A DNA stretch of 64,000 bases from Candidatus Poriferisocius sp. (GTDB lineage: Bacteria > Actinomycetota > Acidimicrobiia > Acidimicrobiales > Bin134): contig NZ_OZ244793.1 in assembly GCF_965219775.1 (NCBI RefSeq), positions 1,844,757 through 1,908,756 of the forward strand, in the 5' to 3' direction. The notes under the pieces are model-generated. The model ran no database searches. It was not told the DNA's origin and saw only the letters and a program-made list of their open reading frames with translations. Below are positions 8,969 to 33,943 of the stretch, one piece after another. Numbering within the stretch: position 1 is the stretch's first letter; the number at the start of each line of letters is the position of its first letter. The position numbers and the translations under genes are program-made.

Positions 8969-9799
8969 TCAGGCGGGGGCGGCCACGGTCAGGCGGGCCA
9001 TCTCCCGGCGCTGCGGATAGTGGTCGGCCACCGCGAAGTGCTGGGTGCAACGCTCGTCCCACACGATGACGTCGCCCTCGGTCCACTCGTAGCGGATGGT
9101 GTAGTTGGGCTGGGTGGCGTGCTCATAGAGCATGTCCAAGATGGCGTCACTCTCGGCCCGGTCGAACCCCACCAGGTGGCTGGTGAAGTTCTGGTTGACG
9201 TTGAGATGGCGGCGCCCGGTGTCGGGATGCACGGCGATCACCGGACGCTCGACGCCGGGGTACTGCTCCCGGGTGCGGTCCACCAGCTCGCCGCCCGCCT
9301 TGGAGATGAACGCCTGACCCGGCCCCATGTCGTGCCAGGCCACCAGGCCCTCCAGCCGTTCCGCCAGGGCCTCGGACAGGCCGTCGTAGGCGGCGTACAT
9401 GCTGGCGAACATGGTGTCGCCCCCGCGGGGAGGCATGTCCACGGCCCGCAGGCTGCCCACGATGGGGGCGTCGGGATCCCAGGTGACGTCGGTGTGCCAT
9501 TTGTCCTGGTAGGGCGGATGGGCCTCGTCGTCGACGATGCGCTCCACCTTGGCCTCCAACGCCCCGGCCACCCGGCCGATGGGGTGGATGTAGGGCCGCC
9601 CCCAGGGGGCCAAGAGGGCCATCTGCTGGTCGTCGTCGATGGCCTGGTCGGGAAAGACCAACACCAGATGCTCCAACAGCAGCCTGTACAGCTCGTCCTG
9701 GGCGTCCGGGTCCCGCGGTTCTCGCAGGTCGATGTTGCCGACGCGGGCGCCGAGCACCCCGCCGATGGGTTCCACCTGCCATTGCGTCATGTCGGACAC
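8969..9799 (-). CDS. TauD/TfdA-family Fe(II)/2-oxoglutarate-dependent dioxygenase
   Basis: WHTDVTW (His-x-Asp facial triad), GGDTMFASM, and a C-terminal WDERCTQH are typical of TauD-like dioxygenases. Confidence 0.85.
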   Translation of the reverse strand: MSDMTQWQVEPIGGVLGARVGNIDLREPRDPDAQDELYRLLLEHLVLVFPDQAIDDDQQMALLAPWGRPYIHPIGRVAGALEAKVERIVDDEAHPPYQDKWHTDVTWDPDAPIVGSLRAVDMPPRGGDTMFASMYAAYDGLSEALAERLEGLVAWHDMGPGQAFISKAGGELVDRTREQYPGVERPVIAVHPDTGRRHLNVNQNFTSHLVGFDRAESDAILDMLYEHATQPNYTIRYEWTEGDVIVWDERCTQHFAVADHYPQRREMARLTVAAPA

Positions 9800-9802
9800 C
9801 TC

Positions 9803-10459
9803 CTAGAAAAACCCACGGCCTTGCACGGCTGCGCTGGCCATCCAGACCTCGAAGTCCTGGATGGACTGGGCCATGGCCTGGCCGATCAGGTCGAGCTTGC
9901 GCACCTGGTCGATGCGGGCGCCGGCCTGCTCCAGCTCCCGCTTGGACAAAATCTCCCCGAAGATCCCGCAGGCGTGGGCCAAGCAGATGATGACCACGTC
10001 GCGGGGGCTGGGGATGTCGTCGCTGAACAGCACCCCCATGATCCGCAGCTTGACCTCCCGCTCGGCCTCGCCGTCCACCAGGGGATACCGGCGCGACCGG
10101 AACACCCACAAGAAGCGGTCGTCCTCACGCTCGAGGATGCCCTTGTCCACCAGCCGTACCAGGGCCTCTTCCCGGATTTGCGGCCCTTGCCGGGCGAGCT
10201 GCTCCACCCAATGGCGGGCGTCGCTCTCCTCGCCCTCGGCGATCATGGCCAGGGCCGGATCCAACAGGCTGTCGCCCAGCGGGGTGGCATCCACCAGCAT
10301 CAGGTTCTCCAGGTCGGTGTCGATGCGGTTCTCCATGGCCAGCTCCATCAGCACCGCTCCGGCCACTGCCCGGTCCATGGACGACTGGGGGATGCTGATG
10401 AACTTCCCGTCGTCGTCGCGCAACAAAAGGAGCATGATCTCCTCGACGAACCTCAGCAT
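9803..10459 (-). CDS. GPP34/GOLPH3-family protein
   Basis: From ORF 9803..10510. MLRFVEEIMLLLLRDDDGKF... and the helical repeat pattern are typical of bacterial GPP34 proteins. The start is set to ATG 10459, 6 nt after AGGAGG; ATG 10465 is an alternative. Confidence 0.7.
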   Translation of the reverse strand: MLRFVEEIMLLLLRDDDGKFISIPQSSMDRAVAGAVLMELAMENRIDTDLENLMLVDATPLGDSLLDPALAMIAEGEESDARHWVEQLARQGPQIREEALVRLVDKGILEREDDRFLWVFRSRRYPLVDGEAEREVKLRIMGVLFSDDIPSPRDVVIICLAHACGIFGEILSKRELEQAGARIDQVRKLDLIGQAMAQSIQDFEVWMASAAVQGRGFF

Positions 10460-10648
10460 GAGCATCCTCCTTCTATCGGGACGGGCCGTGGGGCCGGGTC
10501 GTGCGGGCAAGCCGCCGTGGGGGCAGGTCTCACCAAGACGTTAGCGACAGGCGACGGTCGGTTCGCCCGTCCACGGTGAAATTCTGCCCGCCACGGCTGG
10601 CTGCCATGGTCAGTTGCCGGGGCCAATGGCCACGGCGGGTTGGCGGGG

Positions 10649-11863
10649 CTAATTGCCGCCCTCGGTGAGCTCCACGGTGCGACGGGCGAAGTCGTTGCCG
10701 TACACGTCGTAGCCCGCGGCCACCAGGTTGGCCACCGCCTCCTCGGCGATGTCGGTGCGGAAGGCACCGTCGTCGGGCGCGGCCGCCAGGATGCCCTGGG
10801 AGGTGGCCACCTCCACCGTCTGGTCGTAGAGGGCCTGGTCCATCACGCCCACCCCGCCGGGGGACGGCCAGATGAGGGCGTTGATCTCGTTCATCATCCA
10901 CGCCTGGTGGGCGGGCCCACCGAACGGCGGGGAGGCGTTCACCACCACGTCGACGCACTCCTGGAAGTTGTCGCGGCAGTGGATCCAGCCCCGCAGCGAC
11001 GCTTCCACGAAGCGCACCGCCGTGTCGCGGTATTCGGGGTCGTCCGCCAACCGGTCGGCGTCGGCCCAGATGGCGTCCTGCAGCATGGCCGTGCCCACGT
11101 CGTTCCAGTCGATGACGGTCAGGTCCTCGGGCTGGAACAACTCGCCGGTCTCGGGGTTGATGGTCTCCAACACCAGGGCATACTCGTTGTAGGTCATGGC
11201 CTGGGCGGCGTCGATGTCGCCGTTGATGAGCGCCGTCATGTTGAAGTCCTGCTGCACCAAGGTGACGTCGGACTGGGGATCCAGGCCCACGCTGACCAGC
11301 CCGGCGAAGAGCTCGAACTCGTTGCCGAAGCCCCAGTTGCCCACGTTCTTGCCCGCCAAATCGGCCGGACCATTGATGCCCGCGTCGGCGAAGGACACCT
11401 GCAGGGTACCGCTGCGCTGGAACACCTGGGCGATGTTGGTGATGTCCAACCCCTCCTCGCGGGGCACGAGCCCCCGTGGCACCCAGGAAATGGCGAAGTC
11501 GGCCCCCCCGGAGTCGAGCACCGTGGCGGGCACGATGTCGACACCGCCGTCGATGATGGTCACCTCCAGGCCCACATCCTCGTAGAAGCCCAGGTCACGG
11601 GCCGCAAAGTAGCCGGCGAACTGCGACTGGGGCACCCACTGGAGCTGCAACGAGACCTCACGGAGTTCCTCGGACTCCTCGGTGGCCGGTGCGGGGGCCT
11701 CGGTGGGCTCCGGGGTGGACGGTGCGGCCGTGGGATCGGGCTCGGGGGCGCTGTCATCGTCGTCGTTGCCGCATCCGGCCAGTACCAGGCCGAACACGAC
11801 CAGCACGGCCAGCAGCCGCCACACGGTCCCTTTGGGCCCTTTGCGCATCCTGTTTGCTTTCAT
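10649..11863 (-). CDS. ABC transporter substrate-binding lipoprotein, NMT1/THI5 (SsuA/ThiY-like) family
   Basis: Signal peptide plus lipobox (LVLAGCGNDDDD), a low-complexity linker, then LQLQWVPQSQFAGYF, typical of NMT1/THI5-like binding proteins. Confidence 0.8.
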   Translation of the reverse strand: MKANRMRKGPKGTVWRLLAVLVVFGLVLAGCGNDDDDSAPEPDPTAAPSTPEPTEAPAPATEESEELREVSLQLQWVPQSQFAGYFAARDLGFYEDVGLEVTIIDGGVDIVPATVLDSGGADFAISWVPRGLVPREEGLDITNIAQVFQRSGTLQVSFADAGINGPADLAGKNVGNWGFGNEFELFAGLVSVGLDPQSDVTLVQQDFNMTALINGDIDAAQAMTYNEYALVLETINPETGELFQPEDLTVIDWNDVGTAMLQDAIWADADRLADDPEYRDTAVRFVEASLRGWIHCRDNFQECVDVVVNASPPFGGPAHQAWMMNEINALIWPSPGGVGVMDQALYDQTVEVATSQGILAAAPDDGAFRTDIAEEAVANLVAAGYDVYGNDFARRTVELTEGGN

Positions 11864-11944
11864 GGTTCACCACTGATCCGGAGATCATTCCTTTCTGGAG
11901 AGCGATTTGCCGGACGGCAAGCCGCGGTCTTGGTTGTTGGTCGA

Positions 11945-12724
11945 CTAGGGGCGGTCACCTCGGGAGCGGATGAGTGCGTGCCACGGCATCGCCACCCGTT
12001 CCAGCACCGTGACCACCACGTACAGCACGGCGCCGATGCCGGTGCCCGCCAGCACCGCGGCCCAGGCGTCGTCGTAGCGGGTGAGGCCCGCCGATTGGGT
12101 GATCAACGGGCCCAGGGCGTCCTGGCGACCGCCGAAGTACTCGGCCACGATGGCGGCGATCACCGCCAGCGAGGTGGCCAGCTTGAGGGCGGTGAAGAAG
12201 TAGGGCAGGGCGTTGGGAATCCGCACCTCCCGGGTGATGCGAAAGCGCCCGGCGGCGTACGACTCCATGAGCTCGATCTGGCTGCGGTCCACCTGGGTGA
12301 GCCCCCGGGTGGTGTTGATGAAGATGGGGAAGAACACCAGCGCCACCACGATGGCCTGATTGGAGCGGGGGGAGGTGACCCCGAGCCAGTTGTTGAGGAT
12401 CGGGGCCAAGGCGATGATGGGGATGGCGTTGACCGCCACCGCCAGGGGGGTGATGGTCTCATTGGCGGTGCGGAACCGGGTGACCAACAGGGCGGCCACC
12501 GCACCGAGCACCACGCCGGCCACCAGACCGGTGACCACCACGAAGCCGGTGATGCGGGCCCCCCGGTACACCACGTCCCAGTTGTGGATGAGCGCGCCCA
12601 CGATCTCGCTCGGTGCGGGCAGCACGAACCCGTCGGGGTCGGTCCAACGCAGCACCGCCTCCCACAGACCGAAGATCACCACCCCGGTCACGAAGGGAGC
12701 CAAGAGGCGCTCGGGCGCGCTCAT
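11945..12724 (-). CDS. ABC transporter permease (SsuC/TauC-type BPD family)
   Basis: 259-aa polytopic membrane protein with an EAA-like loop. Its start overlaps the ATPase stop (ATGA-type coupling). Confidence 0.85.
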   Translation of the reverse strand: MSAPERLLAPFVTGVVIFGLWEAVLRWTDPDGFVLPAPSEIVGALIHNWDVVYRGARITGFVVVTGLVAGVVLGAVAALLVTRFRTANETITPLAVAVNAIPIIALAPILNNWLGVTSPRSNQAIVVALVFFPIFINTTRGLTQVDRSQIELMESYAAGRFRITREVRIPNALPYFFTALKLATSLAVIAAIVAEYFGGRQDALGPLITQSAGLTRYDDAWAAVLAGTGIGAVLYVVVTVLERVAMPWHALIRSRGDRP

Positions 12725-13560
12725 GCTTCTTCTTCTCGCAGGGCGGTGCGCACTTCGGTGACCTTGGCGAAGAAGGCGGGGTCGTCACGGGTGGCGGCGC
12801 TGCGTTCGCCGAGGTCGACGGGGATGGTGGCCGCGATCCGGCCCGGACGAGGTGACATCACCACCACCCGGGTGGACAGGTACACCGCTTCGGGAATGGA
12901 GTGGGTGACGAACACCAACGTGGTCCCGGTCTCCGTCCAGATGCGCAGGAGTTCGTCCTGCATGTGCTCGCGGGTCATCTCGTCGAGGGCCCCGAACGGC
13001 TCGTCCATCAGCAACAACGACGGGCGAAACGCCAGCGCCCGGGCAATGGCCACCCGCTGTTGCATGCCGCCGGACAACTCCGACGGATGGTGGCCGGCGA
13101 ACTCCCCGAGCTTCACCAACTCCAGCATCTCGGTGGCCCGCCGGCGGCGATCGGACTTGGACCAACCCATCAGCTCCAGGGGCAACTCGATGTTCTTGAC
13201 CACGCTGCGCCAGTCGAACAGCCCGGCGGTCTGGAAGGCCATGCCGTAGTCCCGGTCGAGGCGGGCCTGCTCGGCGGGCTTGGCGTTGACCAGCACCGAC
13301 CCCGAGGTGGGGGCCACCAGCGAGGCGATCAACCGCAACAGGGTGCTCTTGCCGCACCCCGACGGGCCGATGAGGGTGACGAACTCCCCAGGGGCCACCG
13401 CCAGATCGATCTCGGCCAGGGCGTCCACCTGATTGGCCCGGCCCGGGTTGAACACCTTGGTGACCCCCTGGATGTCGATCACCAGCGAGGGCCCGGCGTC
13501 ATCGGCAGGATCCGGCGCGGTCGGGGCGGCCACCTCGTCCACCGGGGGTTGCTCGCTCAT
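12721..13560 (-). CDS. ABC transporter ATP-binding protein
   Basis: Part of ORF 12721..14109 beginning MSEQPPVDEV (ATG 13560). Walker A GPSGCGKST, signature LSGGMQQRV, Walker B LLLMDEP. Confidence 0.9.
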   Translation of the reverse strand: MSEQPPVDEVAAPTAPDPADDAGPSLVIDIQGVTKVFNPGRANQVDALAEIDLAVAPGEFVTLIGPSGCGKSTLLRLIASLVAPTSGSVLVNAKPAEQARLDRDYGMAFQTAGLFDWRSVVKNIELPLELMGWSKSDRRRRATEMLELVKLGEFAGHHPSELSGGMQQRVAIARALAFRPSLLLMDEPFGALDEMTREHMQDELLRIWTETGTTLVFVTHSIPEAVYLSTRVVVMSPRPGRIAATIPVDLGERSAATRDDPAFFAKVTEVRTALREEEA

Positions 13561-14582
13561 GAGATCGACCCTTCGCCGTGACGGCCCACCACCACGCGCT
13601 CGGCCGCGCTGACCACCAGGAACACGAAGATCCCCAAAGCGGCGGCCCCCAGCACGCTGGCGAACAAGCGGTCGGGACCGGTGGTGTAGTTGAACGCCTC
13701 CCGCAGGATCCGCCGACCGAGGCCACCCTCCACTCCGGCGGAGATCTCCCCCACGATGGCCCCCACAATGCTGGCCGTCGCTGCGATCTTGAGGGCGGCG
13801 AACAGGTAGGGCAAGGAGGCGGGCAGGCGGAGACGCCACAGCGTCTGGCCCCAGTTGGCGGCGTAGGAGGCCATCAGCTCGGCGTTTTCGGGGCGCGGCG
13901 ACTGCAGGCCCCGCAGTCCGTTCACCGCCACCGGGAAGAAGGTCAGGTAGGTGGCGATGACCGAGACCGACATCCAGTCCTGCCACTCCCACGGGAAGAC
14001 ATCGAAGTTCTTGCGCCCCCAGATCACCACGATGGGGGCGATGGCGATGAGCGGGATGGTCTGGCTGGCGATCACGAACGGGAGGAGCCCCTCCTCGAGA
14101 CGTCGCCATTGGGCCAAGACCAAGGCGATGGCCATGCCGATCACCAGGCCCACTACGAAGCCGGCGAAGGCCTCCCGCAGGGTGAACAACGCCTCGTCGA
14201 ACAGGATGAGCACGTAGATGCGGTCGCGGCCCCCGGGGACCTCGCCGAACTGGCCGATGATCTCACCCAGTGGCGGCATGTTCAGATCGTTGGAACGGGG
14301 CAGCATCGACCCCACCACCGGCCAGTCCTTCTGGTCGTCGTCGATGGCCTGACCGACCGCTTTGTACCCGGTGTAGAGCCCGGCGAGCAGGGCCAAGAAG
14401 ACCACGAAGGTGACCGTCCGGCGTACCACCCGGCCCATGACGTCGCGGCGATCCTGTTGGGCCGCCCGCTGCCGCATGAGGTGGTCACGCACCAGGGGAT
14501 CGCCGTGGCCCACAGAGGCGTGGGTGGCAGGGTCGGCGGCAGCGTCGGTGGTCGGGTCGACGGCAGGCTCGGCGGTCGGCAT
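13557..14582 (-). CDS. ABC transporter permease (second permease of the same system)
   Basis: 341-aa polytopic protein, paralogous in layout to 11945..12724. Its stop overlaps the ATPase start. Confidence 0.8.
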   Translation of the reverse strand: MPTAEPAVDPTTDAAADPATHASVGHGDPLVRDHLMRQRAAQQDRRDVMGRVVRRTVTFVVFLALLAGLYTGYKAVGQAIDDDQKDWPVVGSMLPRSNDLNMPPLGEIIGQFGEVPGGRDRIYVLILFDEALFTLREAFAGFVVGLVIGMAIALVLAQWRRLEEGLLPFVIASQTIPLIAIAPIVVIWGRKNFDVFPWEWQDWMSVSVIATYLTFFPVAVNGLRGLQSPRPENAELMASYAANWGQTLWRLRLPASLPYLFAALKIAATASIVGAIVGEISAGVEGGLGRRILREAFNYTTGPDRLFASVLGAAALGIFVFLVVSAAERVVVGRHGEGSIS

Positions 14583-14594
14583 CGGGGGCTGGTC

Positions 14595-15596
14595 CTAGCC
14601 GTTCATGGCGGGGATGATCCGCTGACCGTAGGCGTTGAGGGTCTCGTCCTTCTGGTCGTGCATCAGGTAGATGGCGAACTGGTCCACCCCCAGGGACTCC
14701 AGCTCCCGGAGCCGGGCCAGATGGGACTGCTCGTCGCCGAGGAGGCAGAAGCGGTCGATGATCTCGTCGGGCACGAAATCGGTGTGGTCGTGGCCCGCCT
14801 TGCCGTGGCCGGAATAGTCGTAGCCCTGGCGGCCCGCGATGTAGTCGGTGAGGGCCTGGGGCACGCCGGCGCCCTGGTCGCCGTAGCGGGCCACCAGATC
14901 GGCCACGTGGTTGCCCACCATCCCACCGAACCAGCGGCACTGCTCCCGCTGGTGGGCCACGTCGGGGCCTACGTAGGCCGGGGCGGCCACGCAGATGTAG
15001 AGGCTGTCGGGGTCGCGGCCCGCGTCGGCGGCGGCCCGGCGCACGGCGGCGATGGTCCACTCGGCAATGGCCGGGTCGGCCAACTGCAGGATGAAGCCGT
15101 CGGTCTCGCTCCCGCACAACTGCAGCGCCTTGGGTCCGTAGGCGGCCATCAGCACCTTGAGTTCCGAGGCCCGGGCCCAGGGGAATTGCTGCTCGGTGCC
15201 GTTGTAGGTGGCGGTGCGCCCCTCGGCCAGGTCCTTGATCACCCCCATGGCCTCCCGCAGGGTGGCCAGGTTGCAGGGCGGACGACCGATGACCCGCAAC
15301 GCCGAGTCGCCCCGGCCGATGCCGCACACCGTGCGGTTGCCGAACATGTCGTTGAGGGTGGCAAACAGCGACCCGGTGACCGTCCAGTCGCGGGTGCCGG
15401 GGTTGGTGACCATCGGACCCACCACCATGCGGTTGGTGGCCGACAGCATCTGGCTGTAGACCACGAAGGGCTCCTGCCACAGCACGTGGCTGTCGAACGT
15501 CCAGCCGTAGGAGAAGCCCAGCGACTCGGCCCGCCGGGCCAGGTCCACCACCCGCCACGCCGGGGGGTCGGTCTGCAAAACGACGCCGAAGTCCAT
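14595..15596 (-). CDS. LLM-class oxidoreductase of the F420-dependent (Mer-like) subgroup; cofactor assignment is inferred
   Basis: MDFGVVLQTDPP..., VGPMVTNPGTRDW and CGIGRGDSA resemble methylene-H4MPT-reductase-like F420 enzymes of actinobacteria. It lies between the ABC importer genes and mmsA. Confidence 0.75.
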   Translation of the reverse strand: MDFGVVLQTDPPAWRVVDLARRAESLGFSYGWTFDSHVLWQEPFVVYSQMLSATNRMVVGPMVTNPGTRDWTVTGSLFATLNDMFGNRTVCGIGRGDSALRVIGRPPCNLATLREAMGVIKDLAEGRTATYNGTEQQFPWARASELKVLMAAYGPKALQLCGSETDGFILQLADPAIAEWTIAAVRRAAADAGRDPDSLYICVAAPAYVGPDVAHQREQCRWFGGMVGNHVADLVARYGDQGAGVPQALTDYIAGRQGYDYSGHGKAGHDHTDFVPDEIIDRFCLLGDEQSHLARLRELESLGVDQFAIYLMHDQKDETLNAYGQRIIPAMNG

Positions 15597-15641
15597 GGTT
15601 ACCCCCTCGCCGGGCCGTGGCCGGGTCGGCTCGGCCCCCGT

Positions 15642-17129
15642 TCACTCATTGGTCGGAAATCCCAGGTCGACCGCGCTGGTGGCCGGATCGGGCCAGCGGG
15701 AGGTGATCACCTTGGGCCGGGTGTAGAAGCGGATCCCCTCGGGGCCGTACATGGTGGTGTCGCCGAACAGGGAGTCCTTCCACCCGCCGAAGGAGTGGTA
15801 GCCCACCGGGACCGGAATGGGCACGTTGATGCCCACCATGCCCGCGTCGGCGTCCTCTTGGAACTGGCGGGCCGCCCCACCGTCGCGGGTGAAGATGGCG
15901 GCCCCGTTGCCCCACGGGTTGTCGGCGATCAGCCCCACCGCCTCGCCGTAGGTGTCGCAGCGCACCACGCACAGCACCGGGCCGAAGATCTCGTCCCGGT
16001 AGGCGTCCATGGCGGGGGTCACGTGATCGAGCAGCGACACCCCCAGGAAGAAGCCGCCGCCGTCGAAGCGGGCGCGGCGGCCGTCCACCACCACGGTGGC
16101 CCCCTGATCGGCGGCCCCGCCGACGTAGCCCGCCACCCGGTCCCGGTGCTCGGCGGTGATGAGCGGCCCCATGTCGGAGGCCGGGTCGGTACCGTCGCCG
16201 ATGACCAGCTTCTCCATGCGCACCTTGATGGCCTCCACCAAGGGGTCGGCCACGTCACCCACGGCGGCCACCACCGAGATGGCCATGCACCGCTCCCCGG
16301 CGGATCCGTAGGCGGCCGACACCGCCGAGTCGGCGGCCAACTCGATGTCGGCATCGGGCAGCACCACCATGTGGTTCTTGGCCCCGCCCAGGGCCTGCAC
16401 CCGCTTGCCGTGGGCGGTGCCGGTGGCGTACACGTACCGGGCGATGGGGGTGGAGCCCACGAAGCCGGCCGCCTTCACGTCGGGATGGGCCAGCAGCCGA
16501 TCCACCGCCACCTTGTCGCCGTGGACCACGTTGAGCACGCCGGGGGGGAAGCCCGCCTCGCCGAACAGCTCGGCGATGAACAGCGGGGCCGACGGGTCGC
16601 GCTCGGAGGGCTTGAGCACGAACGTGTTGCCGCAAACGACGGCGTTGGGCACCATCCACAGCGGCACCATGGCCGGGAAGTTGAACGGGGTGATGCCCGC
16701 CACCACCCCGAGGGGGCGGCGCACCGAGTAGACGTCGACCCCGGTGGAGGCGGCCTCGTTGTGGCTGCCCTTGAGGTGCTCGGCCAGCCCACAGGCGAAC
16801 TCGATGTTCTCCACGGCCCGGGCCACTTCGCCGCGGGCGTCGCTGTGGACTTTGCCGTGCTCGGCGGTCAGGCGGGTGGCGATCTCGTCGGCATTGTCCA
16901 CCACCAGGTTGCGGAAGGCGAACATCAAAGCGGTGCGTCGGGCAATCGACGTGGCCCCCCAGTCCTCGAAGGCGGCCCGGGCCGAGGCCACCGCGGCGTC
17001 CACCTCGTCGGCCGAGGCCAACGGCACCTCGCCGGTCTGTTGCCCGGTGGCCGGGTTGTAGACCGCCGAGGTGCGCCCCGATGCCCCGGCCACCGGCCGG
17101 CCGTCGATCAAGTGGTGAATCTCTTGCAT
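15642..17129 (-). CDS. mmsA: CoA-acylating (methyl)malonate-semialdehyde dehydrogenase
   Basis: 495-aa aldehyde dehydrogenase with the MmsA-type N-terminus (HLIDGRPV...), catalytic GERCMA and no thioester-hydrolysing Glu context. It is adjacent to pyrimidine and beta-alanine genes. Confidence 0.88.
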   Translation of the reverse strand: MQEIHHLIDGRPVAGASGRTSAVYNPATGQQTGEVPLASADEVDAAVASARAAFEDWGATSIARRTALMFAFRNLVVDNADEIATRLTAEHGKVHSDARGEVARAVENIEFACGLAEHLKGSHNEAASTGVDVYSVRRPLGVVAGITPFNFPAMVPLWMVPNAVVCGNTFVLKPSERDPSAPLFIAELFGEAGFPPGVLNVVHGDKVAVDRLLAHPDVKAAGFVGSTPIARYVYATGTAHGKRVQALGGAKNHMVVLPDADIELAADSAVSAAYGSAGERCMAISVVAAVGDVADPLVEAIKVRMEKLVIGDGTDPASDMGPLITAEHRDRVAGYVGGAADQGATVVVDGRRARFDGGGFFLGVSLLDHVTPAMDAYRDEIFGPVLCVVRCDTYGEAVGLIADNPWGNGAAIFTRDGGAARQFQEDADAGMVGINVPIPVPVGYHSFGGWKDSLFGDTTMYGPEGIRFYTRPKVITSRWPDPATSAVDLGFPTNE

Positions 17130-17156
17130 GCGTTCCTCCTGTAGACGCCCCTGGGC

Positions 17157-18566
17157 TCAGATGAGGTACGAGCTGAGGCCCCGGCGCAGGTACCGGCCGT
17201 CGCCCATGGCGCCCAGGTACCGGTCGTTGTCGATGATGACCTGGCCTCGGGACAGCACGGTGTCCACGTGGCCGGTGACCTCGAACCCCTCGTAGGCCGA
17301 GTGGTCGATGTTCATGTGGTGGTTCTCCACGCTGATGGTCCAGGTGGCCGCCGGGTCGTAGATCACCACGTCGGCGTCGGCCCCCGGTTGGATGGCCCCC
17401 TTGCGGGGGTAGAGGCCCATCATGCGCGCCGGGGTGGTCGAGCACAGCTCCACCCACCGGGGCAGGGTGATCTCCCCGGTGACCACCCCCTGGTAGATCA
17501 TGTCCATCCGGTGCTCCACCCCGCCGATGCCGTTGGGAATGGCCCGGAAGTCGTCCACGCCCAACTCCTTTTGCTCCTTCATGCAGAACGGGCAGTGATC
17601 GGTGGACACCACCGCCAGGTCGTTGGTGCGCAGGCCCTTCCACAGTTCGTTCTGATGGTGCTCGTGGCGGGGCCGGATGGGGGTGGAGCACACGTAAGCG
17701 GCGCCGTCCCAACCCTGGTCGAGGTGCTCCTCCAGGCTGAAGTACAGGTACTGGGGGCAGGTCTCGGCGAACACGTTGGCCCCGTCGTTGCGGGCGATGG
17801 CCACCTGCTCGAGGGCCTGCTTGGCCGACAGGTGCACGATGTAGAGGGGGGCGGCGCCCACCTTGGCCAACTGGATGGCCCGGTGGGTGGCCTCCGACTC
17901 GAACTCGGCCCGGCGCACGTAGCCGTGGTTCACCGGGTCGGTCTCGCCCCGCTCGAAGGCCTGCTGGGCCAACACGTCGATGGCGATGCCGTTCTCGGCG
18001 TGCATCATCAACAGCCCGCCGTTGCCCGCGCACTGCTGCATGGCCCGCAGGATCTGGCCGTCGTCGCTGTAGAAGACGCCGGGGTAGGCCATGAACAGCT
18101 TGAAGCTGGTGACCCCCTCGTTCACCAGCAGGTCCATCTCCTTGAGGGCGGCGTCGGTGACGTCGCCGATGATCATGTGGAAGCCGTAGTCGATGGCGCA
18201 GCGACCCTCGGCCTGCTCCATGCGGGCGTCGAAGCACTCCCGCACGTCGAGGCCGTAGCTCTGGGTGGCGAAGTCCACGATGGTGGTGGTGCCCCCCCAG
18301 GCGGCCGCCCGGGTGCCGGTCTCGAAGTCGTCGGAGGCCACGGTGCCCCCGAACGGCAGCTCCATGTGGGTGTGGACGTCCACCCCGCCGGGGACCACCA
18401 GCTTGCCGGTGGCGTCGATCACCCGGTCGGCCCCGCCCTCGGCAGCCACCGCCAATGCCGATCCCGGTTGCAGCACCCCGGCGATGACCTCACCGTCGAT
18501 CAGCACCTCGGCGGGGTCGGCCCCGGTGGAACTCACCACCGTTCCGTTCTTGATCAGCGTGGTCAT
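17157..18566 (-). CDS. dihydropyrimidinase / D-hydantoinase
   Basis: IKNGTVV...GGVDVHTHMELPFGGT...TTTIVDF, plus a carboxylated-Lys region FKLFMAY, typical of cyclic amidohydrolases of the dihydropyrimidinase type. Confidence 0.9.
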   Translation of the reverse strand: MTTLIKNGTVVSSTGADPAEVLIDGEVIAGVLQPGSALAVAAEGGADRVIDATGKLVVPGGVDVHTHMELPFGGTVASDDFETGTRAAAWGGTTTIVDFATQSYGLDVRECFDARMEQAEGRCAIDYGFHMIIGDVTDAALKEMDLLVNEGVTSFKLFMAYPGVFYSDDGQILRAMQQCAGNGGLLMMHAENGIAIDVLAQQAFERGETDPVNHGYVRRAEFESEATHRAIQLAKVGAAPLYIVHLSAKQALEQVAIARNDGANVFAETCPQYLYFSLEEHLDQGWDGAAYVCSTPIRPRHEHHQNELWKGLRTNDLAVVSTDHCPFCMKEQKELGVDDFRAIPNGIGGVEHRMDMIYQGVVTGEITLPRWVELCSTTPARMMGLYPRKGAIQPGADADVVIYDPAATWTISVENHHMNIDHSAYEGFEVTGHVDTVLSRGQVIIDNDRYLGAMGDGRYLRRGLSSYLI

Positions 18567-18594
18567 GGTGCTTGCCTCCCTGTCGAACTCGCCG

Positions 18595-19893
18595 TCATTC
18601 CCGACCGTCGATCTCGGCGATGGTGTCCACCAGGGCGGCCACCCCTTCGTCGATCTCGGCCTCGCTCACGTCCAGCATGGGGGTGATGCGGATGGCGTTG
18701 CCGTACAGGCCGCCCTTGCCCACCAACAGGCCCCGCTGTTTGCAGCCCTCCAGTATCCGGCCCGCCCGGTCGGCGTCGGGCTCGATGCCGCCGGGCACCA
18801 CCATCTCGATGGCCTGCATGAGCCCCCGGCCCCGCAACTCGGCGATCCACGGCGTGCGGTCCACCACCGGGGCCAGGGCGTCGCGGAGTCGCCCGCCCAT
18901 GCGCCGGGCGTTGCCCTGCAGGTCGTTGTCGCGTACGTAGCGCAGGGTGGCCAGCCCGGCCGCGGTGGACAGCGGGTTGCCGCCGAAGGTGGAGAAGCTC
19001 AGCTTGGTGATGGTGTCCATGATCTCGGCCCGGGCCACGATGCCCGCCAGCGTGATCCCGTTGCCCACCCCCTTGGCGAAGGTCAACATGTCGGGCACGA
19101 TGTCGTGGGCCTGGTAGCCCCAGAAGTGCTCGCCGGTGCGCCCCCAGCCGGTTTGCACCTCGTCGCTCACGAACAGGATGCCCCGGTTGGCCAGCACTTT
19201 GTGCAGCGACCCGAAGAAGCCGTCGGGGGGCGTGGCGAAGCCGCCCACCCCCTGGATGGGCTCGGCGATGAGGCAGGCCACGTCGCCGGTGGTCGCCATG
19301 TCGATGATCTGGCGGAGGTCGTCGGTGCAGGCCTCGGTGAACTCGTCGTCGTCGAGGTGGCGGAAGGGGCTGCGCAGCCGGTAGGCCCCGTGGACGAAGT
19401 TCACCGACAACCCCGACAGGGCGGTGGACAGCCACGACGAGTGCGAGGTGATGGCCTGGGCGGTGAACGAGCGGCCGTGGTAGCTGTTGCGCATGGCCAG
19501 CACTTCGTTGGAGTTGCGGTAGCTGGTAGCCAACAACATGGCGGTGTCGTTGGCCTCCGACCCCGAGGTGGTGAAGAAGACCCGGGCGTCGGGGATGCCG
19601 CTGATGGCGGCGATCTCCTCGGCCAGTTCGATCATGGGCTCGCTGAGGTAGAGCGTGGAGGTGTGCAGCACCTTGGCGGCCTGGTGTTGGATGGCCTCGG
19701 TGACCGCCGGGTTGTTGTGCCCCACCATGGTGGTGAGCACGCCGCCGAAGAAGTCCAGGAAGCGGTTGCCCTCCACGTCCCACACGTAGCCCCCCTGTCC
19801 CCGGTCGATGCTGATGGGATCGGCGTAGAGCGGCTTCAGGTAGGAGGGCAGCACCGCCCGGTAGCGCTGGTGCAGGTCGGCGTTGGTGGTCAC
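18595..19893 (-). CDS. class-III (omega) aminotransferase, candidate beta-alanine aminotransferase
   Basis: 432 aa with SGSEANDTA, DEVQTGWGRTG and a TFAKGVGNG PLP-Lys motif. Confidence 0.88.
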   Translation of the reverse strand: MTTNADLHQRYRAVLPSYLKPLYADPISIDRGQGGYVWDVEGNRFLDFFGGVLTTMVGHNNPAVTEAIQHQAAKVLHTSTLYLSEPMIELAEEIAAISGIPDARVFFTTSGSEANDTAMLLATSYRNSNEVLAMRNSYHGRSFTAQAITSHSSWLSTALSGLSVNFVHGAYRLRSPFRHLDDDEFTEACTDDLRQIIDMATTGDVACLIAEPIQGVGGFATPPDGFFGSLHKVLANRGILFVSDEVQTGWGRTGEHFWGYQAHDIVPDMLTFAKGVGNGITLAGIVARAEIMDTITKLSFSTFGGNPLSTAAGLATLRYVRDNDLQGNARRMGGRLRDALAPVVDRTPWIAELRGRGLMQAIEMVVPGGIEPDADRAGRILEGCKQRGLLVGKGGLYGNAIRITPMLDVSEAEIDEGVAALVDTIAEIDGRE

Positions 19894-19903
19894 GGGAGGG
19901 GGC

Positions 19904-20746
19904 CTAGGCCTCGGTGAGCGGGCCGTACATATCGGGGCGGCGGTCGCGGTAGAAGGCCCACTGGGCCCGGACCTCGTCGATCATGGCGAAGTCCAGGTCG
20001 CGGATCACCAGCTCCTCGTTCTGGTCCGAGGCCGGATCATCCACGAACTGGCCGCGGGGGTTGGCGAAGTACGAGGTGCCGTAGAAGTCGTTGTCGCCCA
20101 ACGGCTCCACGCCCACCCGGTTGATGGCCCCCACGAAGTACATGTTGGCCGCGGCCGACGCCGTCTGTTCGAGCTGCCACAGGTAGGCCGACAGGCCCCG
20201 GCTGGTGGCCGAGGGGTTGAACACGACCTGGGCGCCGTTGAGCCCGAGCGCCCGCCACCCCTCGGGGAAATGGCGGTCGTAGCAGATGTACACGCCGACC
20301 CGGCCCACCGCAGTGTCGAACACCGGGTAGCCCAGGTTGCCGGGGCGGAAGTAGAACTTCTCCCAGAAGCCCTTCACCTGGGGGATGTGGGTCTTGCGGT
20401 ACTTGCCCAGGTAGGTGCCGTCGGCGTCGATCACCGCCGCGGTGTTGTAGAGGATGCCCGGCTGCTCCTCCTCGTACATGGGCAGCACCATCACCATGCC
20501 GTGGCGGGCGGCGATCTCCTGGAATCGCTTGGTGGTGGGGCCGTCGGGAATGGCCTCGGCGTAGCGGTAGTACTCGGCCTCCTGCACTTGGCAGAAATAG
20601 GGGCCGTAGAACAGCTCCTGGAAGCACATGACCTGGGTGCCCGCAGCCGCCGCCTCGGCCGTGTACTTCTCGTGCTGGTCGATCATCGACTCCTGGTCGC
20701 CGGTCCAGGCGACCTGCACGATGGCTGCTCTGACCACGTCGGACAT
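19904..20746 (-). CDS. beta-ureidopropionase (nitrilase-superfamily N-carbamoyl-beta-alanine amidohydrolase)
   Basis: C-terminal 280 aa of ORF 19904..22105, from MSDVVRAAIVQ (ATG 20746, GGAGGTG upstream). CFQE...DGPTT...GKYRKTHIP...ICYDRHFPE...FNPSAT is colinear with eukaryote-type beta-alanine synthase. Confidence 0.88.
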   Translation of the reverse strand: MSDVVRAAIVQVAWTGDQESMIDQHEKYTAEAAAAGTQVMCFQELFYGPYFCQVQEAEYYRYAEAIPDGPTTKRFQEIAARHGMVMVLPMYEEEQPGILYNTAAVIDADGTYLGKYRKTHIPQVKGFWEKFYFRPGNLGYPVFDTAVGRVGVYICYDRHFPEGWRALGLNGAQVVFNPSATSRGLSAYLWQLEQTASAAANMYFVGAINRVGVEPLGDNDFYGTSYFANPRGQFVDDPASDQNEELVIRDLDFAMIDEVRAQWAFYRDRRPDMYGPLTEA

Positions 20747-20943
20747 GGGGCACCTCCGAAGCTCTCCGGCGACGCCGACGAGGGCCACGTCTCGACGGCA
20801 CGGCCTTGAGGAATAAACCCCCGATTCTTGCTGATGGCGAGGCCCGGAATCAAGAGGCCTCTCGCCCGCCTGCGGCTGGGTTCGGCTGGGTTGGCCCTGT
20901 CCGGCTACCCCGAGGAGACGGGGTGGTGGACGCGGTTCGGCGG

Positions 20944-22260
20944 CTACGAGGAGACGGGGTGGGCCAGCACCCGGTCGAGTTCGGCGTGCATGTTCACCAG
21001 GCGGCAGTCGAAGTCGCCCAACACCAGCTCGTCGATGCCGTCGGAGGCCATGCCGGCCTGCACCCGGCCGATGCCGTCGAGGTCCTGGTTCACCACCTCG
21101 GCGATGACCGTGCCCTCGGGGAACTCGATCATCTCCGGGGGCGGGCCGGCGCCGTTGTGCGATCCCAATCGGTGGAACAACCAGAAGTCGAAGTGGGAGC
21201 GTCCGGGGTGGTCGCCGGGGCGGGCCCGGAAGATGGTGAACAGGTCGCTGTGCACGTTCAACACCACGTTGGGGAATACCAGGTAGTGGTAGTCGTCGAG
21301 GATCTGCTCGTCGTTGTAGTGGGTGAAGTCCACCCCTTCGGCGGCCGCCCGACCGCGCACCTTGTCCACCGCCCAGTCCCGGGCGCTGCGGCCGTCCAGG
21401 TCGGGGTGGTCGCCCGGCGCCATCCCCAGCATGGAGCTGTAGTTGTCCACGAAGGCCTGGGCCACCTGGGCCTGGTCGGCGTCGGGGAACCGGGGCGATC
21501 CGACCCCCAGGGGGATCTTCATCATGGAGTGGCCCCGGTCCCACAGTTCGTAGGTGGTGTTGAGGGCGTCCATGAACCCCCGCAGCCCGGGGTGCAGGCC
21601 CTCCACGTGGTAGGCCTCGTTGAAGGCGTCCACCGTGGTCTTCCAGTTGCCGGCCAGCGGAATGGTCCACGAGGCGGTGAGGGTTCGTTCGTCCAGCTTG
21701 AACGGGGCCAGGGTGGACGGCACCGGGTCGAGGAACTCCTCCAGGTCGGGGCCGTCGGGCGTGGGGTTGATGAACACCATCTGGTGCCACACCCCCAGCC
21801 GCACGGGGGCCAGCGACAGGTCGTCGTTGGCGATCACGCCGAAGTTCTTGCGGTACACCACCTCTCGCAGGGAGCCGTCGAGGCCGTAGCACCAGTCGTG
21901 GAAGCCGCAGCGCAGCTCGTCGGCGTGGCCCTTGCCCTCGCACAACCGGAACCCCCGGTGGCGACAGGCGTTGTGGAAGGCCCGTAACTCGCCGTCGTGG
22001 TCGCGCACCACCAGATAGCTCTGGTCGCCGATGCGGTACTCGCACCAGTCGCCGGGCTCGGCCACGTCGGTGGTCAAACAGGCGAGCTGCCAGGTGGCGG
22101 GCCACAGCCGCCGCCGCTCCAGGGCGGCGAACTCCTCCTCCAGGTAGCGGCCCTTGGGCAACCGGGCCGGGAGACCCGCGCCGTCGCCCGCCCGGAGGCG
22201 GTACCGATCGAACTCTGGTGCCTTGGTGGGGGCGGCCTTGGTGGTGGCGGCCGGGCTCAT
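20944..22260 (-). CDS. Rieske [2Fe-2S] aromatic-ring-hydroxylating oxygenase, alpha subunit
   Basis: Rieske motif CRHRGFRLC...CGFHDWCY. The C-terminal catalytic domain has a mononuclear-iron region (NEAYHVEGLH). Confidence 0.85.
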   Translation of the reverse strand: MSPAATTKAAPTKAPEFDRYRLRAGDGAGLPARLPKGRYLEEEFAALERRRLWPATWQLACLTTDVAEPGDWCEYRIGDQSYLVVRDHDGELRAFHNACRHRGFRLCEGKGHADELRCGFHDWCYGLDGSLREVVYRKNFGVIANDDLSLAPVRLGVWHQMVFINPTPDGPDLEEFLDPVPSTLAPFKLDERTLTASWTIPLAGNWKTTVDAFNEAYHVEGLHPGLRGFMDALNTTYELWDRGHSMMKIPLGVGSPRFPDADQAQVAQAFVDNYSSMLGMAPGDHPDLDGRSARDWAVDKVRGRAAAEGVDFTHYNDEQILDDYHYLVFPNVVLNVHSDLFTIFRARPGDHPGRSHFDFWLFHRLGSHNGAGPPPEMIEFPEGTVIAEVVNQDLDGIGRVQAGMASDGIDELVLGDFDCRLVNMHAELDRVLAHPVSS

Positions 22261-22297
22261 CGGTACCGGTCGAGGTCTGGTGCGGGGGCGGCCTTGG

Positions 22298-24043
22298 TCA
22301 TCGAGCGCCGCGCACCAGGCGTCCGGGGCGGGCGCCGGTGTCGGAGCCGTGGCTGCGGGTGACCTCCCCGGCCACCAGGGTGGCCACGTAGCCCACGGCT
22401 TCCTGGTCGAGGCGGCGACCCCCGGCGGGCAGGTCGTGGACCACCCTCGGCGAGCGCAGGGTCAACGCCTGGTGGTCGATCACGTTCACGTCGGCCCGCT
22501 TGCCCACCTCCAGGGTGCCCCGGTCGCCCAGCCCGTACAGGGCGGCGGTGTCGTGGGTCTGCTTCTTCACCACCCACTCCAGGGGGAGTTGCTCGCCCCG
22601 GCTGCGGTCGCGGGTCCAGTGGGTGAGCATGAAGGTGGGGATGGAGGCGTCGCAGATCATGCCGCAGTGGGCGCCCCCGTCGGACAGGCCCGACACCCCG
22701 GCGGGATGCAGGAGCTGCTCGCGAATGACGTCGTGGTTCTCCTCGAAGTAGTTGAACATGGGCAGCATCATCAGGGCGTGGCCGTCGTCCTCCAGGCACA
22801 GGTCGTAGAGCATCTCCATGGGTTCCACGCCCCGAGCCTCGGCCAGAGCCGCCACCGTGCGGTCACCGGTGGGCTCGTAGTCGGGCGGATCGCCGATCAC
22901 GTACAGCCGGTGGAGCATCCTGGCCACCAGGGCGGGCATCTGGTCGAACAGCACGTTGGGGTTGGGCGGCAGGTCGTCTTCGGCCAGGATGGCCTGGCGG
23001 ACCGCCGGGGTGCGGAGTTCGGCCACCAGCTCGTCGAAGGGCAGGTGGGCCCGGGAGACGAAGTTCGGGCGCTTGGCGAAGGCGTGATTGGTCTGCAGGC
23101 CGATCAGCATCCCGAACGGGCGGCCGGCGATCTGGGGATACACCCGGGCGCCCTCGTCGGTGGCCCGCAGGGACTCGTCCATCATCTCCCGCCACAGGTC
23201 GGGGGCCCCGTCCACCTGCAGGAGGGCGAACGACACCGGCACGTCGAAGCGGGCCGACAGCCGCCGCATCCAGTCCATTTCCTTGGGCGGGGCCACCAAG
23301 TCGAGCCCGGCGGCTCCGGCGGGGGCCAGCTCGAACACCCCGGCCCCGGCGTCGGCCAGGGCCCGGCCCAGCCCGAACAGCTCGTCCTCGGCGGCGAACG
23401 TGCCCGGCACCGGCTCGCCGTCGATGGCCCGGTGGCCCAGCGTGCGGGAGGTGGACACCCCCAGCGCCCCGGCCTCCAGGGCCTCCCGGCTTATGGCGTA
23501 CATGGCCTCGATGTCGGCGGGGGTGGCGGGCTCGTTGCGGGCCCCCCGCTCGCCCATCACGTAGCCCCGCACCGCCCCGTGGGCCACCTGGGTGGCCACG
23601 TCGATGGACAGGCGGCGCTCGTCGAGCACGTCCAGATACTCGGGGAAGGTCTCCCACCCCCACGAGATGCCCTCCGACAGGGCGGCGCCGGGGATGTCCT
23701 CCACCCCTTCCATGAGCTGGATGAGCCATTCCTCGGTGCCGGGCCGCACCGGGGCGAACCCCACCCCGCAGTTGCCCATGACCACGGTGGTCACCCCGTG
23801 GCCCGACGACGGCTGGAGCTTCTCGTCCCAGGTCACCTGGCCGTCGTAGTGGGTGTGGCAGTCCACGAAGCCCGGTGTCACCACCAGGCCGTCGGCGTCG
23901 ATGGTGGTGGCCGCTTCGGGGGCCGGGCCGCCGCTGCGGTCCACCACGGCCACCTTGCCGTCCTTGATGCCGATGTGGCCGGTGAACCGGTCGGCCCCGG
24001 TCCCGTCCACCACGGTGCCATTGGCAATCACCTTGTCCAGCAC
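22298..24043 (-). CDS. N-acyl-D-amino-acid deacylase (D-aminoacylase) family amidohydrolase
   Basis: 581 aa with IANGTVVDGTG...GFVDCHTHYDGQVTWD. GTG start at 24043, 7 nt after GGGGGAGG. Confidence 0.85.
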   Translation of the reverse strand: MLDKVIANGTVVDGTGADRFTGHIGIKDGKVAVVDRSGGPAPEAATTIDADGLVVTPGFVDCHTHYDGQVTWDEKLQPSSGHGVTTVVMGNCGVGFAPVRPGTEEWLIQLMEGVEDIPGAALSEGISWGWETFPEYLDVLDERRLSIDVATQVAHGAVRGYVMGERGARNEPATPADIEAMYAISREALEAGALGVSTSRTLGHRAIDGEPVPGTFAAEDELFGLGRALADAGAGVFELAPAGAAGLDLVAPPKEMDWMRRLSARFDVPVSFALLQVDGAPDLWREMMDESLRATDEGARVYPQIAGRPFGMLIGLQTNHAFAKRPNFVSRAHLPFDELVAELRTPAVRQAILAEDDLPPNPNVLFDQMPALVARMLHRLYVIGDPPDYEPTGDRTVAALAEARGVEPMEMLYDLCLEDDGHALMMLPMFNYFEENHDVIREQLLHPAGVSGLSDGGAHCGMICDASIPTFMLTHWTRDRSRGEQLPLEWVVKKQTHDTAALYGLGDRGTLEVGKRADVNVIDHQALTLRSPRVVHDLPAGGRRLDQEAVGYVATLVAGEVTRSHGSDTGARPGRLVRGAR

Positions 24044-24141
24044 AGCACTACCTCCCCCTTGTCCGGCCCGTTGTCCGGATTGGCCCTTGGTGGGCCTAGT
24101 TTGTCGCCGTTGACGGCTGGTTGTCGACTACTGGTTGCCGG

Positions 24142-30767: not shown

Positions 30768-30776
30768 CCTCCCCCC

Positions 30777-31646: not shown

Positions 31647-31666
31647 AATTATGGAGGCTCGATTGC

Positions 31667-32518: not shown

Positions 32519-32520
32519 CT

Positions 32521-32630
32521 GATTCTGACCGTAACACCTGAGTTACGTCTCCTGGGGTATTTGGGGGGCGCTTCCGAGCCCGAGTGAGAGCGCCACCATA
32601 CAGACGCCCGGTGACAGCTTGCGCGCTCCC
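32521..32630 (-). repeat. copy A of a ~110-bp upstream module (promoter/5' leader) directly preceding the methyltransferase start
   Basis: Aligns base-for-base at offset 1135 with 33656..33765, with scattered mismatches. It contains TGTCAC-N10-TATGGT and the hairpin GGCGCT...AGCGCC. Confidence 0.75.
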
Positions 32631-32662
32631 TGCCACGCGACACGTTTCTGCCGCCCGGCACC

Positions 32663-33622: not shown

Positions 33623-33655
33623 GAGTCTCCAACTCCGGGTTCGAGAGTAGACCTC

Positions 33656-33928: not shown

Positions 33929-33943
33929 CAGCCATGATGGCTG
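33929..33943. promoter_or_regulatory. perfect palindrome CAGCCAT-G-ATGGCTG (operator-like)
   Basis: 7-bp arms with a 1-nt spacer, read directly. It lies within an array of GTTGTC(G/A) motifs in non-coding DNA. Confidence 0.3.

Follow-up and report, generated by a model that had tools for sequence, protein, structure and literature searches.

Introduction

Bacterial gene clusters for reductive pyrimidine catabolism (Pyd clusters), as reportedly described by Yin and colleagues in 2019, combine PydA, PydB and PydC and are extended with PydD together with either PydE or a malonic semialdehyde dehydrogenase (MSDH). The first enzyme, dihydropyrimidine dehydrogenase (DPD), occurs as the NADPH-dependent PydA, the NADH-dependent PreT/PreA and the ferredoxin-dependent PydAc. 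To our knowledge, all known DPD classes have a flavin mononucleotide (FMN) domain of the dihydroorotate dehydrogenase (DHODH) fold in common. Here we analyse a 64,000-nucleotide stretch of the genome of Candidatus Poriferisocius sp. (contig NZ_OZ244793.1; the whole stretch is referred to as the window). Nine tightly spaced minus-strand genes, which occupy positions 10649-20746 of the window, combine enzymes for the later steps of this pathway, a transporter and an oxidoreductase of the luciferase-like (LLM) class that resembles enzymes using coenzyme F420. On the basis of comparative sequence analysis we propose, with a probability of roughly 0.6, that this LLM protein is an F420H2-dependent uracil/thymine reductase, a non-homologous stand-in for DPD.

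Wang et al. 2020 (PMC7332683) list an MSDH variant of the Pyd cluster (legend of Fig. 1C). That study defined PydA candidates by the presence of DHODH and ferredoxin domains, and an LLM-type enzyme could therefore not have been found there. Two further published cases concern the reductase itself. In Chloroflexota clusters for reductive uric acid degradation, a putative F420 enzyme of PF00296 replaces the DPD-like YgfK/UacX beside the PydB-like SsnA (PMC12507026, 2025). The second case is NpsU/SSGG-03002, the uracil C5=C6 reductase of napsamycin/mureidomycin biosynthesis, for which in vitro activity was not obtained (PMC10714638). The full-text literature yielded no account of an F420- or LLM-type DPD in the Pyd pathway, subscription journals being outside the scope of the search. 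What we predict from the sequence comparisons as new is thus the first enzyme, non-homologous and cofactor-switched, of an otherwise known pathway.

Conserved linkage of the LLM gene to pyrimidine catabolic genes

One genome per species was scanned for relatives of the LLM protein, and at least 598 genomes were found to carry one. The best 80 of these loci were taken with 10-kb flanks, their orthologues being 67-88% identical to the window protein, and the window proteins were mapped onto them by tblastn together with a relaxed filter for open reading frames (ORFs). The 80 loci cover Acidimicrobiia, many Actinomycetes (Streptomyces, Actinoplanes, Crossiella, Plantactinospora, Marmoricola, Frankiaceae and Streptosporangiaceae) and two metagenome-assembled genomes (MAGs) labelled Pirellulaceae and Binatia. 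Genes were counted as upstream of the LLM gene when they lay on the same strand within 7.5 kb, and these counts refer to the 67 loci with at least 6 kb of upstream flank.

Dihydropyrimidinase is encoded upstream of the LLM gene in 63 of the 67 loci and a CN-hydrolase in 62. The immediate upstream neighbour could be evaluated in 76 loci, where it is dihydropyrimidinase in 39 and the (methyl)malonate-semialdehyde dehydrogenase MmsA in 32 (71/76 together). The distance from the stop codon of this neighbour to the LLM start has a median of 20 bp and is 60 bp or less in 61 of the 71 cases. The aminotransferase gene was found upstream in only 23 of the 67 loci (32 when any position in the locus is counted) and that for MmsA in 25, which identifies the two as accessory modules. 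We also observed 15 loci, among 60 with both flanks, that carry the hydrolase and dihydropyrimidinase without aminotransferase or MmsA (11 without and 4 with the binding-protein gene of the transporter). These trio-only loci, together with the difference in upstream counts, define a core of CN-hydrolase, dihydropyrimidinase and LLM that mirrors PydC-PydB-PydA. Linkage of this LLM subfamily to pyrimidine genes, which the first-pass annotation had named in advance as one point on which its proposal could fall, is therefore strongly conserved.

The Streptomyces loci show a different arrangement, with the gene order beta-ureidopropionase, aminotransferase, dihydropyrimidinase and LLM and without MmsA, so that some enzyme must remove the semialdehyde formed there. 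The LLM protein could itself do so as an F420H2-dependent malonate/methylmalonate-semialdehyde reductase, an analogue of PydE, RutE or YdfG that detoxifies the aldehyde made by the aminotransferase, while uracil is reduced by a DPD encoded elsewhere or a dihydropyrimidine is imported. F420-dependent LLM enzymes acting on alcohols or carbonyls are among its matches (Adf 1rhc, Fgd 3b4y and the hydroxymycolic acid dehydrogenase 9fp4), and our search for DPD covered the window and 83 related loci. However, the LLM gene goes with those for dihydropyrimidinase and the CN-hydrolase (63 and 62 of 67 loci) and not with the aminotransferase gene (23 upstream, 32 anywhere in the locus), and in the 15 loci without aminotransferase and MmsA no semialdehyde would be made locally. 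In the window and 24 further loci the LLM gene stands beside that for MmsA, an enzyme that already consumes the semialdehyde. The protein is also far nearer to the F420 enzyme Mer than to the alcohol-dehydrogenase LLMs, with 98.6 against about 36 bits in a search of the PDB sequences. We consider a semialdehyde reductase quite unlikely.

For Streptomyces coelicolor, SCO6414 is listed as a hydrolase, SCO6415 as a dihydropyrimidinase and SCO6417 as a transporter, and the three co-vary in one transcriptome (PMC3897704). This set matches the Streptomyces form of the cluster. The intervening gene, SCO6416, we take to be the LLM.

Family, fold and predicted cofactor of the LLM protein

The match to TIGR03842, the curated NCBIfam family 'LLM class F420-dependent', spans residues 2-331 of the 333 in the protein and is thus full length. 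Among sequences of known structure the nearest is Mer (1z69, E-value 3.6e-27), followed by F420-dependent hydroxymycolic acid dehydrogenase, Fgd1 and Adf. The AlphaFold (AF2) model, with a predicted local distance difference test score (pLDDT) of 76 and a predicted template modelling score (pTM) of 0.83, gave a similar result: the nearest fold is Mer with bound F420 (8qpl, template modelling score 0.78), then Adf, Fgd1 and Fgd2, and the FMN-dependent luciferases and sulfone monooxygenases rank lower. Residues 236-271, a loop specific to the family, have pLDDT values below 50 in this model. R217, R221-W222-F223, N229-H230, Y259-D260-Y261, H264 and H271 are family-specific residues that do not vary. 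A V-T-N-P-x-x-R block common to Mer and the LLM family is invariant. The nearest structures and folds are all F420 enzymes, which agrees with the earlier placement of the protein in a Mer-like F420 subgroup.

Mer itself was considered and rejected as an identity for the protein, as both NCBIfam models for it fail (TIGR03555, 102.9 bits against a cutoff of 348.7; NF002619, 114.3 against 276). Glu6 of Mer, the residue mutated in 8qq8 (E6Q), aligns with Val6 of the LLM protein (MKFGIEF in 1z69, MDFGVVL in the window). This valine is invariant across 19 close orthologues, and more distant relatives have Val, Thr or Ser at the position but never Glu.

The best matches to the window protein come from 'Candidatus Poriferisocius', Acidimicrobiia and Acidimicrobiales MAGs at 88-91% identity, and Acidimicrobiia as a whole contribute hundreds of sequences that are 81-91% identical. 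Orthologues from Streptomyces, Actinoplanes and Crossiella are 67-70% identical. Beyond them, full-length relatives in a library with 50% identity clustering drop fast to 40-50%. Almost all retrieved carriers belong to the Actinomycetota, and this distribution, taken with the nearest sequences and folds, suggests that the LLM protein may use F420. In one locus, from Streptomyces sp. NPDC005820 (L043:11007-13925), the gene directly after the LLM is an FbiC/FO-synthase-like ORF with two Radical_SAM domains and a CofH_C domain, an anecdotal observation that would be in line with F420 use.

The protein family PF00296 also includes RutA, which is established to act directly on uracil, and the LLM could in principle be a pyrimidine monooxygenase of the same kind, using FMN for an oxidative cleavage of uracil. 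RutA yields ureidoacrylate, which is no substrate for dihydropyrimidinase, yet dihydropyrimidinase is the most constant neighbour of the LLM gene, and such an activity appears highly improbable. No RutA model is found among the 18 NCBIfam families that the protein matched at E<=1e-3, the strong matches being all to F420-class LLM proteins. A RutA-like function was rejected on these grounds, and Pfam and NCBIfam scans revealed no partners of the RutB-F type and no flavin reductase in the unit.

Search for a canonical dihydropyrimidine dehydrogenase

Using tblastn with PreT and PreA of E. coli K-12, we observed no match at E<=1e-3 in the window and the 83 related loci (1.58 Mb in total). Pfam scans of about 50 ORFs in the window likewise revealed no DHO_dh domain (PF01180) and no PreT-like protein. 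The statement in the first-pass annotation that the window encodes no canonical DPD is borne out by both searches. The remaining neighbouring ORFs were clustered across loci, and no recurrent oxidoreductase emerged as an alternative first enzyme. Next in frequency among the neighbours come a GntR regulator of the MocR type, seen in 15 loci, an NCS1 permease, a short-chain dehydrogenase, seen in 9, a gamma-glutamyltranspeptidase and a P450.

A putative transporter for the pathway substrate

Downstream of the LLM gene lies a complete ATP-binding cassette (ABC) importer of the NMT1 type, with a binding protein, two BPD_transp_1 permeases and an ABC_tran ATPase. The two-permease importer was recognised in the first-pass annotation, and the ATPase gene, although unnamed there, falls within the span assigned to the transporter. 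The signal sequence of the binding protein ends in a lipobox, LAGC (...LVLAGC), and continues into a linker rich in Pro, Glu and Asp. Among proteins of known structure it is nearest to 4nmy and to ThiY (3ix1), the latter a binder of a formylaminopyrimidine. For the ATPase the nearest NCBIfam models are of the TauB/SaoA type, with scores under their cutoffs.

An ABC permease of the window type directly follows the LLM gene in 42 of 77 evaluable loci, and the ATPase and binding protein are encoded downstream of it in 34 of 67. Seven Streptomyces loci carry in place of the NMT1-type importer an NCS1 'cytosine/purines, uracil, thiamine, allantoin' permease (PF02133, 463 bits). The NMT1 and NCS1 transporter families are both associated with nucleobase-like ligands. 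That two unrelated transporters alternate at one position suggests that both carry the pathway substrate, and this substitution supports the earlier suggestion that the importer may take up the base.

Enzymes of steps 2 to 5 and the identity of the substrate

The family assignments agree with the first-pass annotation, which had read the genes as encoding steps 2-5 of the reductive pyrimidine route. The dihydropyrimidinase has its best PDB match in the dihydropyrimidinase 3sfw (435 bits), and D-hydantoinases (4kqn, 1yny) are also matched. For the CN-hydrolase, a member of the N-carbamoyl-amine amidohydrolase clade, N-carbamoylputrescine amidohydrolase (5h8i, 191.7 bits) and the beta-ureidopropionases 8pt4, 6ftq and 2vhh (about 187 bits) score alike. 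No NCBIfam equivalog is reached, the score for aguB being 258 bits against a cutoff of 410. The conserved adjacency to dihydropyrimidinase suggests that this enzyme is a beta-ureidopropionase. Every NCBIfam match of the aminotransferase lies under its cutoff, the nearest models being of the GabT/ArgD type, and we infer that it acts on beta-alanine/beta-aminoisobutyrate. Both genes of the extended pathway, the aminotransferase family and MmsA, are present in the unit.

Paralogues of the LLM were observed in related contexts. One, P0132 (43% identical), has an Amidohydro_1 gene on one side and a CN-hydrolase on the other, and another, P0134 (44% identical), is followed by a CN-hydrolase. The contigs of two distant LLM relatives, P0124 and P0146, were too short to show an informative context. 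The metagenome cluster around P0132 (L086:3728-16022) encodes an NMT1-type ABC transporter, Amidohydro_1, the LLM, CN_hydrolase, FAA_hydrolase and a second LLM, together with two CoA-transferase subunits, a second Amidohydro_1, an Aminotran_3 and a divergent GntR/UTRA regulator. The cluster appears to represent another catabolic pathway for an N-heterocycle, as yet undescribed and built on the same module of LLM and cyclic amidohydrolase.

The existence of such paralogous clusters, which clearly belong to other heterocycle pathways, raises the question of whether the window cluster also degrades a related compound, for example a substituted or methylated pyrimidine, a hydantoin or a dihydro-heterocycle, which the LLM would reduce or oxidise. 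The enzymes of TIGR02033 are promiscuous, and the names of the top PDB matches include both D-hydantoinase and dihydropyrimidinase; the tie between the CN-hydrolase and N-carbamoylputrescine amidohydrolase leaves similar room. In addition, the window and its closest relatives carry, immediately ahead of the unit and in the same orientation, genes for a Rieske oxygenase and two Amidohydro_3 proteins. These genes are, however, limited to four related loci and stand about 165-197 bp off the unit, and thus outside the conserved core. The aminotransferase and MmsA suit beta-alanine and beta-aminoisobutyrate, which arise specifically from uracil and thymine, and both transporter types suit a nucleobase-like ligand. 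A substrate other than uracil and thymine is therefore unlikely in our estimate.

Proposed pathway

The first-pass annotation had suggested that the LLM enzyme may supply the missing C5=C6 reduction. Comparative genomics supports this suggestion, the catalysis itself being a prediction. In the pathway we propose, the NMT1-type lipoprotein, the two permeases and the ATPase would import uracil and thymine. The key step would follow, in which the LLM protein may move a hydride from F420H2 to C6 with protonation of C5, giving 5,6-dihydrouracil or 5,6-dihydrothymine. The dihydropyrimidinase, in keeping with its clear family membership, would open the ring to the N-carbamoyl-beta-amino acid, from which the CN-hydrolase, placed by clade and with a predicted substrate, would release NH3, CO2 and beta-alanine or beta-aminoisobutyrate. 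Transamination by the class-III enzyme would then probably give malonate or methylmalonate semialdehyde, and MmsA, again a clear member of its family, would oxidise these to acetyl-CoA or propionyl-CoA. An Fno or Fgd from another part of the genome would regenerate F420H2; neither was seen in the window. With an E0' of about -340 mV, F420 is a reductant at least as good as NAD(P)H, the electron donor of canonical DPD.

Several observations count against a uracil/thymine reductase. The rest of the genome could still encode a canonical DPD, given that the search covered the window and 83 loci. NCBIfam (June 2026) lists TIGR03842 only as a 'hypothetical equivalog' with no functional name. The moderate pLDDT of the model and its poorly modelled residues 236-271 allow no active-site argument, and among the scanned ORFs of the 64-kb window there is no gene for F420 biosynthesis or recycling. 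Four loci are exceptions to the conserved linkage: the LLM gene of L028 is an orphan among unrelated genes, the only amidohydrolase of L042 is 42% identical, dihydropyrimidinase is missing from L065, and the dihydropyrimidinase gene of L061 lies at a distance of 9.8 kb. Finally, synteny places the LLM in the pathway but cannot tell at which step it acts.

Synteny alone assigns no reaction to the protein. The LLM may be without a catalytic role in pyrimidine catabolism, either as a passenger kept by descent or as an enzyme for F420 redox balancing, and the orphan copy would fit with this. Against this stands the linkage itself, which is kept across Acidimicrobiia and Actinomycetes at 67-88% identity while the accessory genes and the transporter shuffle. 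This pattern points to selection for co-function and not to inheritance of a frozen block, and we regard a passenger role as very unlikely.

If the LLM protein is a uracil/thymine reductase, TIGR03842 may form a third, unrelated class of DPD, an F420H2:uracil/thymine oxidoreductase that would be the standard first step in many Actinomycetota. The Mer-like LLM clade might then contain general F420-dependent reductases that dearomatise N-heterocycles and pair modularly with cyclic amidohydrolases and carbamoyl-hydrolases, as in the P0132 cluster and the Chloroflexota uric acid cluster. We give this wider proposal an even chance of being correct.

The assignment, if true, would provide a function for a very conserved and widespread family (at least 598 species-level genomes, with orthologues 67-90% identical) and would fill the 'missing DPD' gap in metabolic reconstructions of Actinomycetota, including sponge-associated and marine Acidimicrobiia, the nearest relatives of the window. 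The physiological roles of F420 in aerobic actinobacteria are a long-standing question, and the coenzyme would gain a role in primary nucleobase catabolism. It would also represent a clean non-orthologous displacement, in which a complex flavin/iron-sulfur enzyme has given way to a simple TIM barrel of one domain. Possible uses would lie in the production of dihydropyrimidines and beta-amino acids or in the handling of fluoropyrimidines.

Organisation of the unit and its upstream region

The features of the unit are collected in Table 1. Pfam and NCBIfam scans uphold all coordinates and family calls made in the first-pass annotation. From 5' to 3' the intergenic distances are 10, 28, 27, 45 and 12 bp, then two 4-bp overlaps, then 81 bp. 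The ATG of the ATPase gene overlaps the stop codon of the permease 1 gene (ATGA), and the permease 2 gene overlaps the stop codon of the ATPase gene by 4 bp. Gaps of 197 bp on the upstream side and 138 bp on the downstream side border the unit, and its gene order is repeated in independent genomes. The tight spacing and overlaps, together with this repeated order, identify an operon-like unit and not a chance arrangement.

Table 1. Genes of the pyrimidine catabolic unit and the conserved motif upstream of it, in window coordinates.
Feature	Position	Strand	Evidence and remarks
CN-hydrolase, putative beta-ureidopropionase (PydC, step 3)	19904..20746	-	PF00795, 228 bits; heads the unit
Class-III GabT-like aminotransferase, putative beta-alanine/beta-aminoisobutyrate transaminase (PydD-like, step 4)	18595..19893	-	PF00202 Aminotran_3, 310 bits
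Dihydropyrimidinase/D-hydantoinase (PydB, step 2)	17157..18566	-	TIGR02033, 528.5 bits (cutoff 393)
CoA-acylating (methyl)malonate-semialdehyde dehydrogenase MmsA (step 5)	15642..17129	-	TIGR01722, 700 bits (cutoff 448.5)
LLM oxidoreductase, Mer-like F420 subgroup, putative functional PydA (step 1)	14595..15596	-	TIGR03842, 575.7 bits (cutoff 295)
ABC permease 1	13557..14582	-	PF00528 BPD_transp_1, 68.9 bits
ABC ATP-binding subunit	12721..13560	-	PF00005, 113.6 bits
ABC permease 2	11945..12724	-	PF00528, 83.3 bits
NMT1/THI5-type substrate-binding lipoprotein, putative pyrimidine-base binder	10649..11863	-	PF09084, 111.3 bits (cutoff 20.5)
Conserved motif AAGAATCGGGGGTTTATTCCTCAAG, candidate promoter/operator	20805..20829	-	In the 197-bp intergenic region; near-identical in relatives

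A GGAGG sequence lies 6 nt ahead of the ATG of the CN-hydrolase gene. Within the upstream region the block AATAATCGGAGGTTTATTCCTTAAG is nearly identical, and at equal distance to the ATG, in four related loci (L001, L004, L005 and L006). The relatives' version of the 20805-20829 motif holds an imperfect inverted repeat, AATAA(N8)TTATT, and other lineages, among them the Microthrix loci L016 and L017, have another palindrome (ACTTTG..CAAAGT). The window has a GC content of about 69%, and its proteins are nearest to those of Acidimicrobiia MAGs. A scan with the sigma-70 consensus revealed no promoter-like site, and in a consensus scan terminator-like sites occurred only at chance level, both scans being uninformative for a high-GC actinobacterium. 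Rfam identified a single tRNA in the window and no riboswitch near the operon.

Neighbouring genes

Directly upstream of the unit (window 20944-25884, minus strand) are the genes for a Rieske alpha subunit, weakly GbcA-like (117.8 against 670 bits), and two 580-residue Amidohydro_3 proteins. They are kept only in L001, L002, L004 and L006. We considered these three genes as part of the core and rejected them, as they occur only in the closest relatives and are set apart by the 197-bp gap.

Directly downstream, positions 8969-10510 of the minus strand encode a GPP34-family protein and a dioxygenase of the TauD family, which scores 223.6 bits where the taurine dioxygenase model requires 313. Both keep this position in the closest relatives. 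In three close relatives a second LLM gene, encoding 304 residues, lies between the NMT1 gene and the GPP34 gene (L001:14975-15889 and its equivalents in L002 and L003). The window has only the 138-bp spacer at this point (10511-10648), so the gene has been lost or was never gained. A further LLM-family gene, encoding 395 residues and with all NCBIfam matches under cutoff, lies at 249-1436 on the minus strand. Its surroundings (1489-6832) resemble those of steroid or lipid side-chain degradation, with acyl-CoA dehydrogenase, short-chain dehydrogenase/reductase, thiolase-like and ChsH2-type OB-fold genes.

Further away, the region from about 30000 to 35750 has a lower GC content, 0.61-0.65 compared with about 0.70. 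It encodes a BglII-like restriction endonuclease (30777-31646), an ORF at 31643-32587, a DUF7669 protein (32663-33622, minus strand) and an HNH/DUF222 endonuclease (34536-35750), and is probably a horizontally acquired restriction or mobile island. A nitrogen-regulation locus is located about 16 kb from the operon (36497-40129, minus strand), where the gene for a GlnD-type PII uridylyltransferase (36497-38836) adjoins that for an ammonium transporter (38936-40129). An 855-residue ORF at 45634-48201 on the minus strand matches Peripla_BP_6 in two places, lies in a region of extreme GC skew (-0.28) and AT skew (+0.24), and adjoins permease and ATPase genes of a branched-chain-type ABC transporter (42907-45570).

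Comparison with known systems

The unit shares with the described Pyd clusters a dihydropyrimidinase, a malonic semialdehyde dehydrogenase and, as predicted, a ureidopropionase and a beta-alanine aminotransferase, clustered with a transporter. Unlike in these clusters, no PydA, PreT/PreA or clostridial PydAc, enzymes of the DHODH fold with FMN and Fe-S, was found in the window and the 83 related loci, and an F420-class TIM-barrel LLM occupies the conserved third position. The putative ureidopropionase of the window is of the nitrilase-superfamily type, which also sets it apart from the Pyd clusters compared.

With Mer (1z69, 8qpl, 1f07) the LLM protein has the (beta/alpha)8 LLM barrel in common, as well as G-x-x-V-T-N-x-x-T-R and G-x-G-x-G-D blocks, and in both cases an electrophilic carbon in an N-heterocycle would receive the hydride of F420H2. 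In contrast to Mer, with which it is only about 23-27% identical, the LLM has valine in place of Glu6 and partners from pyrimidine catabolism, and its host belongs to the aerobic-type Acidimicrobiia, without a methanopterin context.

RutA has the LLM fold (PF00296) and acts directly on uracil, as we propose for the window protein, but depends on FMN and O2 and cleaves the ring oxidatively. NpsU/SSGG-03002 is the nearest chemical precedent, the substrate there being a uridyl-peptide antibiotic. It was rejected as a homologous precedent, as its relatives are F420 enzymes of the PPOX class, with a split beta-barrel, and not LLM proteins. The Chloroflexota uric acid clusters (PMC12507026) show the same kind of exchange as we propose for the window, a putative F420 LLM replacing a DPD-like dearomatising reductase beside a PydB-like cyclic amidohydrolase. 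That case, which is also a bioinformatic prediction and is compared here with TIGR03842 by description, differs in its pathway (xanthine/uric acid), its phylum and its partner, SsnA.

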